Assembly: GCA_963514005.1 (NCBI GenBank)
Contig: OY740800.1
Span: 41,540,001 to 41,604,000 of the forward strand
Origin: Raja brachyura
Taxonomy: Eukaryota
Direction of reading: 5' to 3'
DNA length: 64,000 nucleotides
Shown here: piece by piece, positions 2,103 through 58,494 of the stretch
Position numbering within the stretch: the first letter of the stretch is position 1
Layout: every line of letters begins with the position of its first letter
Notes under the pieces: model-generated
What the model was told of the DNA's origin: nothing
Database searches by the model: none
The model's input: only the letters and a program-made list of their open reading frames with translations
Translations under genes and position numbers: made by a program

Positions 2103-3156
2103 GACACATCACATGCTGCTGATAATAGTAAACTGCTCCTAAATTTGCAAAGCCCTAGCATGATAATGAGCAAGTTGGCATCTCTATAATAGTTTGCAAA
2201 TCAAAGCTGAGCCCTCAAATATGAATTAGGCTGCAGCTGTTGGTGTAACAGAGGCAGCATTGCCATTGTAATCTGATTAAACTATTTCTCAAAGTGATGA
2301 CTCAAAGTCAGAAATGTAACCCACGGTTTGTGATTATGAAATTAAATCGACTTGTTTTATTCAATCAGCTGTTGGTAGCAAGGCTTGGATTTATTGCCCA
2401 TTCCAAACAGACTCTTCCATGGCTACAGAAAATTGTGATAGAAAAAAGCTTTAAAAGCCGATGTAATAAAATGTGTCTTTAAGTTAACAAAAAAAGATGA
2501 TAGGTTATCAAAAAAAGGTGCACTGCAGAATATTCGTCATCCTGCTACACAATAAAATATACAAACTGAGGGTGAGAAATAGTCACTTTGAATTATAAAA
2601 GTGATCTATTTTATAACCTCACAGCTAAAATTAACTGCAGCCACAAATGTGTAACTTTGAGTTATTTTCCTTCACACATATTTTTACCATAATTATTACT
2701 CCGATGGTTTTGCTAACATTGACATATCTAACCAACCTCCACTTTAAAACAAAATAGCTAATCTATCATTTAGGAGGGTAAGCAGTACTATTAATTTAAC
2801 ACGTTTGATTTCAAATTAACCGCAATTTAAATTGATCAGGTTTCCATCTCCAGATAAAATAGTAACCTATCACATACTGTGCCCTCCATAATGTTTGGGA
2901 CAAAGACCCATCATTTATTTATTTGCCTCTGTACTCCACAATTTGAGATTTGTAATAGAAAATATCACATGTGGTTAAAGTGCACATTGTCAGATTTTAT
3001 TGAAGGCCATTTTTATACATTTTGGTTTCACCGTGTAGAAATTACAGCTGTGTTTATACATAGTCCCCCTATTTCAGGGCAACATAATCTTTGGGGCACA
3101 TGGATTCACAGGCGTTTGTAATTGCTCAGGTGCGTTTAATTGCCTCCTTAATGCAG

Positions 3157-5026: not shown

Positions 5027-8000
5027 TCATGACTACTTTCATTTACATGACATTGGTGTCCCAAACATTATGATGCCCTGAAATGGGTGGGACTATGTAT
5101 AAACACTACTGTAATTTCTACAGGGTGAAACCAAAATGTATAAAAATGGGCTTTATTAAAATCTGACAATGTGCACTTTAACCACATGTGATTTTTTCTA
5201 TCACAAATCTCAAACTGTGGAGTACAGAGGCAAACAAATAAATGATGGGTCTTTGTCCCAAACATTATGGAGGTCACTGTAGGTGGTCTGAATTGTTTTA
5301 TTAAACTGCTGCAACATTTGTAGTAAAGATACTCCACAGAGCTGGGGGGTATCCTGTTAAGGAAATTTGACCCAGCACAATGAAGGAATTCTGATATAGG
5401 TCCAGGTCAGCATGGTGTGCAATTCTAAGGGAAAGATTTAACAAGGTCCTGCAACGTGTGTTGCAAAATTACACTATACAATAGTACAATTCATGTCATA
5501 TCTGATTCAGTTTTGGCCAATAAAGAAAATATGTTTTAAAATTAGTTTCATATTTCCCTGCATTGTTTGGGAAAACAACACTGCAGGTATATGCAAATAA
5601 TTCATTTTTTAAACATGCTTTCTTTATTAGACAGAACTGGTTAAGATGCAACTTGACTTGTAATATTGTATAATCTATTTTTAATCAATTATTGATCCTG
5701 AGTAGAAGGGATTAAGTGCTGTGCAGCAGGTAGACTCGTTGTTATGCATGATGTTCAGTTATGTTTTTGATTATCCATATAATTATTAAGGGCAATATTT
5801 CTTAGGGTTGAAGTTACTGGTTCAAGTGAAAATCAAGAACGTCTGGATTATTCTGCAGTATTATGTCTTGAAAGTTGAATATGTTAATAAATTGTAACTC
5901 CATCAAAAAATAATAGTTGAAACTAAAATTACATGTTAATTTTATGGATCTTTAGTAAAATACAGAGGTGATTTACTTTGTGAGAATTAAGTATTTGAAG
6001 GAGTTTGGGTGATATCTTAAACAAAACGTTTTGAACACAGGCTGATCATGAAATTCAACTGAATGCTTTTGGTAAATGGTGCCCGCTATCAGGAACATGG
6101 ACTAACTGTCCCACGATTTTCTCTGCAATAAAATGAAAGAACTGAAATTCGACAAATTACATAAATTTCTTATGAGAAATATAGACTGAAAGAAAATTAT
6201 TATTGTTATAGCTCCATAAGTTCCTTGCTATAATTCATGAGGCATAAAAGCTGGTTGGAAGGTTGTAGTTTTGCATTTGTTTTGCAAAACCTATTTTTTA
6301 CATTGTGATCCTCCGGAAATGCAGGTCGCAATGGCAAGGCGCAGGGGCATGCACTTATGACTGGACTATTGCATGCATTGGGTTATCCACCTCACTGTTG
6401 AATATGAGCACGAATAATATGGCTGATAAAATTGGTCTTACTAGGAGTATCATCCTATCTCAAGTATTGTTCAGCTCATATATCAAACAAAAAACAGGTC
6501 TGATTTGAAACAAGCAACATCTTGGAGGTTGGAAAAGGTTGGAGACGGAAAACTCGAGAACCTAAAACAATGCGATAAGAAAACAATAGAACCACAAGTC
6601 TGTAGTGTGCTCATAAACCCTCTTGCATCACACAGGGTCTTGTTTAAACATTTACAGAATTCAGAAGAGTACTTTAATGTGAAGCCATAGAAAAAGCTGA
6701 AAGCTAGCTGTAAGTTTGGAACACAAAGACAGAAGGATGCAAGCCAATTAGTGATTATATTATATCATATATATTAAGATTTTACTGCACTGTATCTTTG
6801 GCACTTTTTTAATCACGATAACACTGTAATAAACAGATAGATGAACAGATTCTATCAAATATTTGCCGAATGCCTGAAATTCACATTTGCAAGTATAATT
6901 GCTGCTTAAATGGAAATGACATCCAAGCATGCTGGAAGATTTCACCCAGCACAAGCAGGTGATGTGGTTGTGGTAACCGGTCAGAAAGCCAAAGCAAAGG
7001 TCAGATCATCAAAGCCAAGTCTGAGGCATACTGATCAGACCACTCGGACAATTGCTATTGAACCCATGGCTACTAATTACCTCAATTTCATCAAATAGCT
7101 GATAGATTCAGTTCTCAAAAGAATGGCTTTATTTCAACAGCCTGCAAAATCCAAGGCTAAGATAAGTAACAAAAGTAATTACATGGGAATTTGAAATGCC
7201 ACAGCAGAAAGGAAAACTTTATACTTCAAAATAAACATACAGACAATTAGAAACTTAGATTGTAATTGTATCAATGCCATGAGCAAACAAGTTTCTAATG
7301 CACTGACAAGTGAATTGATGCTGCTACAAGCTCTTTTATTATGAATAAAGGCACTTACTTCAATAAGTTCAACGAAAATCAGTGTTACACTGTAAACCTA
7401 CACCGGTAATGTTCATTGACGTTGGGATAAACAGTGCAGAGAGCAATTTCATGTCGAGAGTGAAGCTAATTATGTTTACAGCAAACATGCAAATATGAAA
7501 CGTTAATTTTGTTTCATGTGCCTCAGATGGTGACTGTCCAATGGTTACATTCTTATAAACATTTCACAAGGTCTAGAAATAAGAGTTTGGAACAGATAGG
7601 AGCAACTGGTCGCAGGCACAGTCACACAATTTATTATATATTTCAATATGCAATGGTTAATATGTCAAAAAGACTACCGTCTATGAGTGCTGTTTAAGTA
7701 CTGGGCAATTTTCTGGGTTTGCCCCAGAGCCTCTGGTGATATATGGAAATTACTGGGGCTCTGGTTACTGAAGGCTGAACACCATGTTACTGAGTGGCCC
7801 CACTGTGTTAAGAAGGCATTAGCAACTCCAGTGAAAGGAATTGCCTGCAGTCTGATAGTTGCATTGACATGAAGCAGAGGCTTACATCTCCAAACATCAG
7901 GGAAATGTAATTATCATTATTACTTTGCACACAGCTAATGATAAGTATTTCCTTAAATGCAAAGTTTTCACTTGTCTCAGGGATATCCAAATCCAAAGGT

Positions 8001-25706: not shown

Positions 25707-26880
25707 TTCACAAACAAGAGATCTAATAGAAGATAAATTCAATAACAACAGTTCTAATCTCACTTTACATTCAAAGCAGAAAGTAAAGATACATTTGCTT
25801 TGAATTTATGCTTGGTCGCCTCACAATGACAAAGATGACATTTATTTGATGCCATTTTTCAATTTATAAATTATATTATAGATTTTGTTATCAAATGCAA
25901 AACTGACCTGCTCTGACATTTGCTTGTCAAGTACAGTGGATTGTATTTACTACCTTATAAGATCTCTATGCATCAAGCCATTAAACATAAAACTATGGTG
26001 GAAACTAACAAATGACAAAATACATAAGAGTTCACGCTTGCTGTCACAATAATATTGCTAAGCTCATTGGGCAAAACATCTCGGACAACAATTTGTGCAC
26101 ACTTGGTTACTTTTGCTACCTTAACAAGTTGACAAACCAATCATTGGTCATTTCTTTTCATTAATAATTTACTCAAAATGCAGTAATCCCAGTGTTGGTA
26201 GGGCAGAAAATGATTGTGTTCACACGATCACTGCATTTTTCATTAGTCTGGTGCTTGGAAGCACAGCATTTAAATCAAAGAGAAGATAAACATTTGTTAA
26301 AATCTTCATGCACAACCAGGGGCAATGAACGGTCTTAAGATTTTGTGAAATACCCAACATTGTCAACTGACATGTGTGTCCTTTGTGTTATTATTCATTT
26401 TATCTAGATTAAATCCAAATTTTATTTTCTTTGTGTAAATTTAATTATTTTAGTTTCTGTTCAAAGACAGTGAGAGATCCACGATTAAAAAAAATGTTAA
26501 CACAGACCTCTAAAGAGCTTATTCAAGTGCATTATGTCTAAATGACAAGTTTGACATTACCTCTGGGTAACATTGTCCTCAGCAGGTGTCTTGACTTTCA
26601 ATGATCTATGAAGCTTTAAGACCTTGTTGACGCCGAATATTTATTTTCTTTGATCTTTAAAAGAGACAAAAAAGTATGCTTTAAAATCTCACCAGCATGT
26701 AGGGACCTACAGTAAGCATCGCAAAACAAGTGTGTTCATTTGATAAAAGATATGTGATTGAATTTCCCACATTTCTTTGCGTCCACAAATGAACGTAGCA
26801 TTGAAGGCCTAATCCAATTACATTGCTATAATGTTTGATCATTGGCTTCTCTGACCTGCAACCTGCTCCTTTAGTTTGTT

Positions 26881-27006
26881 AAAGAAGGAACTGCAGATGC
26901 TGGAGAATCGAGGGTTACACAAAAAGCTGGAGAAACTCAGCGGGTGCAGCAGCATCTAAGGAGCGAAGGAGATAGGCGACGTTTCGGGTCGAGACCCTTC
27001 TTCAGA
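26881..27006 (-). mobile_element. Penelope-derived 126-bp element with intact hammerhead core and 15-bp TSD
   Basis: Flanked by ctcctttagtttgtt at 26866-26880 and 27007-27021. The minus strand begins tCTGAAGAagggtctcgacccGAAAcgTCgcc. Confidence 0.9.
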
Positions 27007-27021
27007 CTCCTTTAGTTTGTT

Positions 27022-27232
27022 GGATGAAGATGGACACAAAATGCTGGAGTAACTCAGCGGGTCAGGCGGCATCTCTGGAGAGAAGGAATAGGTGATGTTT
27101 TTGGTTGAGACACTTTTTCAGACAGACCAGTCTGAAGAAGGGTCTCGATGCAAAGCATCACCTATTCCTTTTTTCCAGAGATGCTGCTTGACCCGCTGAG
27201 TTACTCCAGCATTTTGTGTCCATCCTTCCATC
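27022..27232. mobile_element. Fold-back copy of the Penelope-derived repeat
   Basis: Long inverted arms (gatggacacaaaatgctggagtaactcagcgggtca / tgacccgctgagttactccagcattttgtgtccatc). Confidence 0.85.
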
Positions 27233-35309: not shown

Positions 35310-35450
35310 TTTAAGAAGGAACTGCAGATGCTGGAAAATCGAAGGTAGACAAAAATGCTGGAGAAACTCAGCGGGTGAGGAGGCATCCATCTATGGAGCT
35401 CCATAGAAGCTGCCTCACCCGCTGAGTTTCTCCAGCATTTTTGTCTATCC
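35310..35450. mobile_element. Fold-back Penelope-derived element with 14-bp TSD
   Basis: Flanked by aagaacttttaata (35296-35309, 35451-35464). Palindrome centred on ctatggagctccatag (35391-35406). Confidence 0.9.
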
Positions 35451-37589: not shown

Positions 37590-37760
37590 TGCGTTCTGCC
37601 CCTTCGAAGGAAAGAAGCATTCAGCTCCCCACTACTATATCTCCAAACAATGGTCTTATTGTTGTATGTCAGCCAGTTACTGGGGTCAAGGAAAGAGCGT
37701 TCACGTCGCGGCCCTGTTTCCACCAATCTTTCCACCACCACGCTGCATAAGAAGCGCAAG
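37590..37760 (-). pseudogene. Decayed Myb/SANT-like ORF of a PIF/Harbinger element
   Basis: RFLCSVVVERLVETGPRRERSF...VWRYSSGELNASFLRRGRTQC resembles the RFS..LE.LVE.V..RR..L / W..IA.E.NA...RT..QC pattern of Harbinger Myb/SANT (NAIF1-like) proteins. Confidence 0.45.
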
Positions 37761-38219
37761 ACGCCATTGTATGCAGATGCCGAGAAGTGTGTTCAGCTCT
37801 GGCTGGACAATTTCTAATCTTGTGATGTGGACTCAATAAGAAGAAGTCAGTTACCCCAAGTTGCCGCCACCCATGCAGTATCCAGCAAGGTCTCTTTGAC
37901 AGAGTGCTCCTAAAAACCTACTGAACCCATCTGCAGTCACCTCTACTAAAAGCCATTGAGCATTCCCCTGCATTACTGTGGCCACTGATGTAGTATTGGA
38001 TTGAGAAACAAAGGTTGACAAAGGCACATACCTAAGGAATGCATAGGTGATCAACTGACTTTTGCAATGATTAAGACATGACTTAACATAGAATTAGACA
38101 ATCACACTCAGGTGAATTATTCCTGGGAGGCCAGGCAGCAAAAAACATTCTAGGTTGCCTCTTTCCTACCACTTCCTCCTCTTGATCCTGTTTACTGTTA
38201 ATTTGCAGCAAGAACGAAG

Positions 38220-40429: not shown

Positions 40430-41090
40430 ATATTTTAGACGAGAGGCTAAAGTGAGGCCTGCTGACTGCTAGGATGTGCATTGGAAGATCTATACAATGA
40501 TCCAAGTTACAGCAGGGAATACTGTTGCTGTTCTAGACCACATTTTTTGGTCAACAAACGCCAGTGAAAACTTACAATATATACTAGTTATGAAACATTA
40601 CTGTGTACAAACTGGCCGCAGCATTTACTTTTTGTATACTTTTTATACTTAATTGTATATATGAATGCACATAAAATACAATGTGCATTACGTCAATAAA
40701 GGACCTGTCCCACTTACGTGCTTTTTCGGCGACTTGCTGGCACCCGTCATAGTCGCAGCAGGTCGCCGAAAATATTCAAAATGGTGAAAATCCAGCGGCG
40801 ACCAGAAAAAGGTACAACACTTTGGGCGACTACTCACGACCAAACAGGCGTCACGTGTCGACATGTCGCGGGGTGTCGCCTGTATGGTCGTGAGTAGTCA
40901 CCTAAAGAGTCGTACCTTTTTCTAGTCGCCGCTAGATTTTCAACATTTTGAAAATTTTCGGCAACCTGCTGCAACTATGATGTGTGCCGGCAGTCGCCGA
41001 AAATATTGCGTAGGTGGGACAGGCTCTTTATGTCAGCATTTTGAGATGAGGTAATATGTAAATACAAATCACTTTCCTTCTACAAATGCC
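40430..41090 (+). mobile_element. Ancient Deu-domain SINE relic (SacSINE1/AmnSINE1-like), split by a MITE
   Basis: Collinear resemblance to the Deu core and tail as I recall it (gagaggctaaagtgaggcc...cagcaggga...ctgtgtacaaactggccgcagcattt...atgtaaatacaa). Heavily diverged. Confidence 0.5.
40700..41027. mobile_element. Palindromic PIF/Harbinger-type MITE
   Basis: TIR cctgtcccac / gtgggacagg. Almost the whole 328 bp folds back on itself. Flanked by TAA/TTA. Confidence 0.9.
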
Positions 41091-57439: not shown

Positions 57440-58255
57440 CCCTTCATGACTCTCTGGTCTATTCTTGTGTGTCCAAACCATTCTCACACACTTTTCCACG
57501 TAGCTGCAGGAGATGCAACACATTTTTTCCCCATCCACGAGCACAAACAGTCCCTCCAGTTGAAGCAAAGGTTTGTTTACATTTCTTCCAATCTAGTGCA
57601 CTGCATTCAATGTTCACAAAGTGGTCTCCTTTCTAATGGAGAAACTAAATGCATTTGGGGTGAATGCTTTACAGAGCACCAGCGAGCAGTCTATATGAGC
57701 GACCTGAACTTCCTGTTGCCTGCCCTGTTTAATTCTCCTTCCCAATCTGACTTTTTTGTCAATGGCCACCTGCACTGTTTCATGTCAGGTTGGGGGGGGA
57801 GATCCCCCCCGCCATGGGTACCATGTAATCCCGTGCTACCTGCTCCATGGTCGGATAGTCGGCGACTAAACCGTCTCCCCCACCTGGTTTGCCAGGTGAA
57901 AGGGGGCTCTGGACCCCCAGCAGGATCAAAAACAAGACCTGTCAAAGGGCGGATGAACTTCTAACGAGCCAACGGCCATCCACACTTCAGTAGAAGTTGC
58001 AATCACTGTTGTACATAACATTGTAAGGAATCATGATAAAGCACACACACCAAAATCCTATATTTCCAGTGGCAGAAGTCCGCAGGAACTGGTGGACAGA
58101 GATGTGTGGTGCGTTCATCACCGTTTCCGTTGGAAACCAGCACCATTGCGTCGCTAATGTTTTCAACGATGCTGACCTGCACTGCTATATCAGGATCAAC
58201 ATGAGCTTGTGAAAGAGAACACCATCTTCTGTCTGGGCAAACCGCAGCCTCCCTG
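57440..58255 (+). pseudogene. Penelope-like element GIY-YIG endonuclease relic, interrupted at 57778-58174
   Basis: QLKQRFVYISSNLVHCIQCSQSGLLSNGETKC..GECFTEH matches the PLE pattern NLIYCI.C..C..LYIGET.R.L..RF.EH. It resumes after the insertion (catcttctgtctgggc = IFCLG). Confidence 0.85.
57778..58174 (+). mobile_element. RTE-like non-autonomous retroelement with 10-bp TSD
   Basis: Flanked by acctgcactg (57768-57777, 58175-58184). Structured GC-rich head with ggcgactaaac and a short gat-like tail. The RTE assignment is inferred. Confidence 0.6.
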
Positions 58256-58399
58256 CGTTGGTTTTGTTTATATGAGAAATACCCAGATATGACACAGGTC
58301 ATTCACCTGTAATATTGGCTCTGTTCTTTCATTCTTCATTACCAAGACCTGACTTATTTCACATTCTTAATCTTTCTGCATTTCGCAGCTTTTACTTTA

Positions 58400-58494
58400 A
58401 TACACACAAAAAGTTGAAGTAACTCAGCAGGTCAGGCTGCATCTCTGGAGATCATGAATAGCTGATGTTTCAGGTCGGGACCTTCTTCAGACTT
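58400..58494 (-). mobile_element. Penelope-derived repeat (hammerhead-core family)
   Basis: gtaactcagcaggtcaggctgcatctctggag...gtttcaggtcgggaccttcttcagact. Confidence 0.8.

Follow-up and report, generated by a model that had tools for sequence, protein, structure and literature searches.

The presence of minimal hammerhead ribozymes in the pseudo-LTRs of metazoan Penelope-like elements was reported by Cervera and De la Pena in 2014 (PMC4209133). In the accessible portion of that paper, these motifs are characterized by a CUGAnGA-H box, a G10.1-C11.1 pair, a GAAA box, a palindromic N-N preceding a U-H cleavage site, and a U-rich 5′ flank; they occupy both terminal repeats and occur mostly as single dispersed copies, opposite-strand pairs being described as well. 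All of these features recur in the repeat unit analyzed here, which lies in a 64-kb stretch of the Raja brachyura genome (hereafter, the window). Positions in the unit are counted from an A at 27008 on the minus strand (+1), so that position n corresponds to 27009 - n. The unit departs from the published motifs in two respects: its helix I, 2 bp closed by a U.G pair, ranks among the weakest of the 56 listed motifs, and it is represented by tens of thousands of identical cores rather than thousands of variable ones. Fig. S3 of the same paper contains no row for a cartilaginous fish.

Endonuclease-bearing (EN+) elements of the Neptune type (Craig et al. [quoted passage not shown] The element to which the unit belongs agrees with them on each of these points. 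In contrast to the elements described there, it features a long ORF (1,192 aa counted from its initial Met, the N-terminal part being rich in Pro), duplications of 7-17 bp in varied sequence, and a very sharp 5′ boundary at the hammerhead. The function of Penelope hammerheads is called unclear in that work. A further relative is PAc, a Poseidon element of Anolis carolinensis (Frangieh et al. 2024, PMC11167929), which shares with the present element two 3′ sites that bound a tail, an apparently uncut RNA template, and a hammerhead near the start of the ORF. PAc belongs to another clade, however, and its ORF begins inside the hammerhead, whereas the ATG lies here at about +167, beyond the tail.

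Animal non-LTR retrozymes (PMC7229834; bioRxiv 10.64898/2026.07.22.740005) resemble the unit in being short and non-coding, in carrying a type I hammerhead, and in their relationship to Penelope termini. According to the accessible text of these sources, they consist of 150-450-bp units arrayed head to tail, whose hammerheads are mostly canonical, and produce circular RNAs. The units described here, in contrast, are dispersed, single or head-to-head, and identical to the terminus of an autonomous element. As such the family is ordinary, minimal hammerheads at Penelope termini having been described in 2014 and the tail mechanism in 2024. A literature search retrieved no report of this element family—which Repbase may already catalogue—nor, for this family, of uncut-template ends or A-tailed cut-site junctions, and found nothing relevant on Penelope elements in sharks and skates. 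Because young, near-identical copies number more than 70,000, it is possible to count the ends of the unit like those of a sequencing run.

The unit and its parent element

Coordinates are compiled in Table 1. The original prediction of a 126-bp unit enclosed by a perfect 15-bp target-site duplication was confirmed, the two copies of the duplication being identical; the duplication overlaps the element by 2 nt at its 5′ end and by 4 nt at its 3′ end, and homology to the family extends over 132 nt. An iterated nhmmer model (E ≤ 0.01) placed 22 family members in the window, where more than a dozen had been noted, and each of the 14 positions then given has a match among them. Genome-wide counts were obtained with sequence patterns. 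Across the 2.7-Gb genome, the 28-nt core is matched exactly 50,608 times, as against no match for a reversed control; it therefore does not represent a chance match, and the very high copy number inferred earlier holds. A 31-mer at +53..+83, downstream of the hammerhead motif, has 70,586 matches.

Table 1. Features of the unit and of related sequences in the window
Feature	Position	Strand	Basis or remark
Solo insertion of a young Penelope-like element's terminal repeat and tail (+1..+132)	26877..27008	-	128/128 nt identical to L065 3′ end and to L067-L068 junctions
Target-site duplication, left copy	26866..26880	.	
Target-site duplication, right copy	27007..27021	.	
Minimal hammerhead motif of type I, from the 5′ arm of helix I through C17 (+1..+31)	26978..27008	-	Sequence; minimal hammerhead consensus, PMC4209133 Fig. 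S3; predicted cut 26978/26977
CUGAAGA catalytic box (+4..+10)	26999..27005	-	Sequence
Helix II, 4 bp, first pair G10.1-C11.1, 4-nt loop (+12..+23)	26986..26997	-	Sequence
GAAA box (+24..+27), palindromic ACGU (helix III only in dimer), C17	26978..26985	-	Sequence
Optional tail of ~35 nt between 3′ end clusters (+97/98 and +132/133)	26877..26911	-	59 and 37 of 100 copies
Adjoining older pair from this family, inverted head-to-head	27024..27225 (27123-27024 minus, 27129-27225 plus)	.	Inverted-repeat and nhmmer hits
Decayed GIY-YIG end of related element	57530..58255	+	Split by insertion at about 57785-58190; separate from the unit at 26877-27008

A frame ending in GIY-YIG is located directly upstream of the unit, in the same orientation, in 8 of the first 30 genome copies. 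Resolved by subfamily, such an arrangement is seen in 56/218 copies of A, 5/96 of B, 7/29 of C, and 1/21 of E. Of 44,354 candidates from a genome search with the RT part, the 150 scored matches showed 97-100% identity, and 16 stretches around the longest frames were taken for the comparison of full-length elements. At L064, L065, and L066, with ORFs of 1,204, 1,204, and 1,203 codons, the unit or a 5′-cut part of it stands just before the ORF and recurs approximately 230 nt past the stop. The window unit matches the 3′ end of L065 at 128/128 nt, as it does the junctions of the head-to-tail array L067-L068, and is 99.2% identical to the other end of L065. At L064, L065, L066, and L067-L068 alike, direct-repeat units flank a single ORF with RT and C-terminal GIY-YIG. 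Intact elements measure about 4 kb, and their ORF encodes RT, a zinc-finger linker (C-x4-C-x2-C in the L064 translation), and GIY-YIG. Pfam hits of the protein fall below cut-off; it has 825 homologues at E ≤ 1e-20, which among the matches listed mostly carry RVT_1. A CX2-5CxxC linker is given as a mark of Neptune or Nematis in the available parts of PMC8557442, and the accessible text of bioRxiv 10.64898/2026.07.22.740005 lists only Neptune and Poseidon for vertebrates; the element likely belongs to Neptune. The unit, which matches both ends of intact 4-kb elements at 99-100% identity, is a terminus that comes from a young, autonomous Penelope-like element resident in this genome; homology to full-length Penelope termini had been proposed as a check in the original prediction.

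Whole elements also occur in head-to-tail arrays. L067-L068 (G000:C18:46.36-46.38 Mb) has a period of ~3,965 and termini that are 100% identical, and L216-L220 (G000:C890) has a period of ~4,270, every unit bearing 3-nt insertions at the cut site. Within the window, an old rearranged copy at 9598-9327 (minus strand) carries an ORF-start fragment (residues 29-59, 68% identity) directly upstream of a UTR remnant and a unit, and a head-to-head pair of the unit family without the hammerhead (35313-35450) is the source of a weak Rfam mir-1756 hit. Other long inverted repeats in the window are a 197-bp pair 2 kb apart (2871-3067 with 5089-5285) and a 168-bp palindrome at 40696-41031.

The GIY-YIG relic that had been noted at 57440-58255 is real (tblastn, 57530-57775 on the plus strand, 45% identity, E 1e-12); a Pfam search of 57440-57784 gave no hit. 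Its proposed connection to the unit did not stand: the nearest unit, at 58399-58493, lies on the opposite strand and was therefore rejected as the terminal repeat of the relic.

A separate dispersed repeat of ~170 bp at 37682-37850 (plus strand) begins at the G-run of an HDV-like ribozyme fold which, drawn by eye, combines a CPEB3-like P3/L3 core with a perfect 7-bp P2 and has hardly any P4. It matches Rfam RF00622 at E 0.0014 with 28.9 bits, under the cut-off of 35, and its 18-nt core has 466 exact genome matches. The downstream sequence is common to 12/12 loci, most of which start at or within the G-run, as expected if self-cleavage were to set the 5′ end. A literature search found nothing on this repeat.

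The hammerhead motif and its conservation

Read directly, the minus strand from 27008 to 26978 carries the hammerhead boxes named in the original prediction and fits the consensus of the minimal Penelope motifs: the catalytic boxes, the G10.1-C11.1 pair, an extra base at 9.1, palindromic 15.2/16.2, and a U-H site are all present. An unpaired A occupies +11, CGUC occupies +28..+31, and the predicted cut falls between +31 and +32, i.e., at the C31/G32 bond. Stem II exists as proposed; it is drawn better, however, as 4 bp plus a CUCG loop than as 5 bp plus a 2-nt loop. The weakness ascribed to stem I is evident, helix I being limited to 2 bp (U.G and G-C, with the wobble as closing pair) at a predicted cost of 0.6 kcal/mol, and folding provided no convincing extension of it. 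For the ACGU duplex of the dimer, -3.1 kcal/mol is predicted. A covariance-model search of the kind recommended, an Rfam scan of the window, returned no hammerhead family at E ≤ 10. Folding of the monomer lent no support to the hammerhead fold and did not exceed shuffles, and the pair probability of helix II was at most 0.005 in four predicted monomer ensembles. Hammerhead dimers, too, have low activity according to PMC4209133, and PMC11167929, in its available parts, describes cleavage only with protein. In the predicted fold of 26877-27008 (minus strand), the last bases of the tail pair with the CUGAAGA box and +52..+60 with the tail, which would hold the ribozyme off; this pairing does not exceed shuffled controls (z -0.95 to -1.49).

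Conservation was assessed on 464 copies drawn from 1.59 Mb of DNA. This sample is not an unbiased one, and 96 of its copies are unassigned; columns were counted by eye. Between the consensuses of subfamilies A, B, C, and E, 0/13 catalytic positions differ, as compared with 11/21 in +32..+52 (p 0.002) and 5/31 in the downstream block +53..+83 (p 0.30). Excess conservation of the catalytic boxes, advanced earlier as a check on the motif, thus exists relative to the next flank but not relative to +53..+83. Subfamily changes within the motif leave the fold intact, with G or A facing U2.1, C17 or U17 at the cut, and U-A or U.G in helix II, and are one-sided, no two-sided compensatory change being found among the subfamilies. 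A 4-bp form of helix I is suggested in the old subfamily D by ~6 decayed copies; a pattern search for D gave 24 matches with ~3 true D copies, too few for covariation.

It is conceivable, if less likely than not, that in this lineage the boxes have ceased to act as a ribozyme and are kept as promoter or protein-binding sequence, a reading that covers the ribozyme only and is compatible with the origin of the unit favored below. This view is supported by the 2-bp helix I with its wobble closing pair and energetic cost, the near-absence of helix II from the predicted ensembles, a folding z of -0.95, the one-sided nature of the subfamily changes, a core no more conserved than the downstream block, and the lack of oligo-A enrichment after C31 (see below). 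It is opposed by the invariance of the catalytic positions next to a variable flank, the retention of the fold by every subfamily change, the A-run junctions at G32 also described below, and the published Penelope hammerheads of Fig. S3 in PMC4209133, which include 2-bp helix I forms in Culex and Drosophila.

Ends of the copies and the RNA template

Ends were mapped in the first 100 of the 70,586 matches to the 31-mer at +53..+83, all 100 of which were recovered; owing to the choice of this 31-mer, the sample is not selected for the hammerhead motif. The 3′ ends fall at +90..+101 in 59 copies, at +124..+135 in 37, and elsewhere in four, such that 96/100 copies end at two sites ~35 nt apart. 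This two-site pattern is the optional 'tail' published for Penelope elements. At the 5′ side, 27 copies run on into the 3′ UTR or ORF of the young element. The other 73 start at -5..+4 (47 copies, two or three of them from older subfamilies that may continue into a different UTR of their own), +6..+13 (16), +19..+26 (6), +32 (1), +33 (1), and +41 (2). Short copies start sharply at AGT, 3 nt before the catalytic core. Across the genome, using patterns that required three non-consensus bases before a given start and that differ in CpG content, so that counts are only roughly comparable, 5,111 starts were found at +1, 50 at +29, 163 at +32, 99 at +34, 170 at +36, and 85 at +40. Copies thus have their start ahead of the ribozyme rather than where it would cut, the count at +32 lying in the range of its neighbours. 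Loose ends likewise pile up at -1..+2 in contigs, probably of DNA, from four public runs of two studies, and no junction at +32 was seen in contigs. The base preceding +1 is G in 2,735 of the 5,111 starts and A or T in 2,376, a hint of a copied cap; however, 47 of the first 100 matches with G read CTG or CAG and may be inverted junctions, and on account of this confounding a cap-derived G was dismissed as firm evidence.

Classified by script, the 100 copies comprise 27 UTR-extended, 18 head-to-head, and 55 other copies. Among the latter, which are solo, a strict 7-17-bp duplication was detected by script in at least 15/55, more being visible by eye. The 100 consecutive copies form a continuum of 5′ truncations; truncation, inverted copies, and partial tandems (e.g., the tandem L067-L068) are all present in the family, and no head-to-tail array of the short unit was found among the 100 copies or in the window. 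At L095 (L007/L008; G000:C1:659.9-660.4 kb) and L338, a unit together with 100-140 nt from the ORF start adjoins a second unit, and these partial tandems fit template jumps after run-off. At seven loci (L260-L262, L264, L266, L267, and L250), another, poly(A)-tailed repeat is joined to the unit at +36/37, representing a chimeric family or a preferred target.

The most probable account is that the unit represents the terminal repeat, with its tail, from a young autonomous Penelope-like element, likely a Neptune, and was likely inserted alone by run-off from internal priming on uncut RNA. By analogy with the anole element tested in vitro, the reverse transcriptase would prime inside the RNA at +97 or ~+132. 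For the anole element, two internal priming sites bound the tail, uncut RNA is the main template, and the accessible text reports no RNA reads ending at the cut site (PMC11167929). Judging by the DNA ends, the enzyme would then copy to the 5′ end of uncut RNA, likely a Pol II start at +1. Run-off at +1 would yield a solo unit, refolding or jumping would give head-to-head pairs and partial tandems, and templates including the upstream unit of a tandem would give longer copies. The hammerhead would fill the first 31 nt of such an RNA, leaving at most 3 nt for helix I, which is consistent with the weakness of this helix. It would be off in the monomer and cut rarely, as a dimer or with the help of a protein. 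Solo copies are likely dead by-products and not an amplifying family. The context of +1 reads as YYANWYY, the initiator consensus. An internal promoter in the terminal repeat has been described for D. virilis Penelope (PMC2377424), and an initiator-like motif has been noted in rotifer repeats (PMC3846280), according to the parts of these papers that are available.

The main rival for the +1 boundary retains the Penelope terminus and regards +1 as a splice acceptor; a different cut in the RNA, or strong stopping by the enzyme at the pyrimidine tract, belongs to the same class. CAG at -1..+2 after a pyrimidine tract does read as a splice acceptor, the end of a D. virilis intron maps to the 5′ side of helix I in the accessible part of PMC4209133, and +1 is read through in the 27 extended copies. 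A splice acceptor, however, predicts starts at +3 and a common upstream exon, whereas +1 exceeds +3 (15 vs 6) and the six +3 copies have no upstream sequence in common; moreover, CAG-W-CTG inverted junctions fit cDNA ending at +1. These alternatives to a transcription start are thus improbable.

Least credible of all is the reading, along the lines of the non-autonomous, retrozyme-like family of the original prediction, that the unit is an independent retrozyme or SINE which is excised by its hammerhead, closed into a circle, and copied in trans: although short copies are the majority (73/100), many solo copies have a duplication of their own, Penelope terminal repeats are held to be the origin of retrozymes in the available text of bioRxiv 10.64898/2026.07.22.740005, and contigs of run X1 join the tail back to -1 across 28 other letters, the unit is identical to the ends of an autonomous element, its copies form a continuum of truncations starting at +1 and not at the cut site, short-unit arrays are absent from the 100 copies and the window, solo copies lack upstream sequence and end 35 nt short of the ATG, and helix II is not formed in the predicted monomer. 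In run X1, which derives from another organism, the tail end is connected to -1 by a pyrimidine-rich spacer of 28-30 nt (cf. L067:7214-7345), a hint of retrozyme-like short tandems in a relative.

Possible traces of cleavage at the cut site

Some of the copies that start at +32 show element sequence followed by untemplated A directly before G32. Element sequence plus at least two untemplated A before the start, a class defined post hoc, was found in 6 of the first 100 loci at +32 as against 3/284 at +34, +36, and +40 (p 0.011); beyond the loci taken in order, only entries already showing AA were examined, and the control locus L415 itself ends at C31. At L426, six A occupy the C31/G32 bond, and L271 carries an 11-nt A-rich filler after +30. 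ORF or UTR fragments with an A-run precede G32 at L172, L255, and L269, and likewise, with one more G, at L179 and L428, while a host-like poly(A) end precedes it at L176. Four loci bear AAA between C31 and G32; their flanks and truncations differ, and they are 92-97% alike and may share one source. Insertions at this bond are AAA in 4/18 cases compared with 0/15 at a control bond (p 0.11), and with this p value and the possibly single source, cut-site insertions alone were discarded as a signal of cleavage. An A-run before the start was rejected as a mark of the cut site as well, since it is not specific to +32: it occurs at four loci at +32, one each at +33 and +34, none at +35, and ~14 at +36/37, six of which are one other poly(A)-tailed repeat. 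Nor is oligo-A enriched as a 3′-end signal after C31 (4 at +29, 3 at +30, 5 at +31, 3 at +32, 6 at +33, 8 at +34, and 9 at +35, counted by eye in the first 100 of 290 matches).

The A-tailed junctions at G32 are a lead, a possible fossil of rare cleavage. Tentatively, the hammerhead may be the first 31 nt of a capped RNA, and the genome may keep fossils of rare germ-line cleavage in which A-tailed ends were joined after the cut, a reading we consider possible while placing it at somewhat under even chances. Such an A-tailed end may belong to the upstream fragment that stops at C31, to a piece of the ORF, or to a host mRNA.

The ends of the copies point to templates that are uncut and stop at one fixed base ahead of the ribozyme, which bears on the role of the hammerhead in these elements. 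If the rare A-tailed cut-site junctions hold up, they would attest directly to in vivo cutting by a minimal Penelope hammerhead whose helix I has 2 bp, and the hammerhead would then be a self-decapping switch and not the maker of a transposition template.
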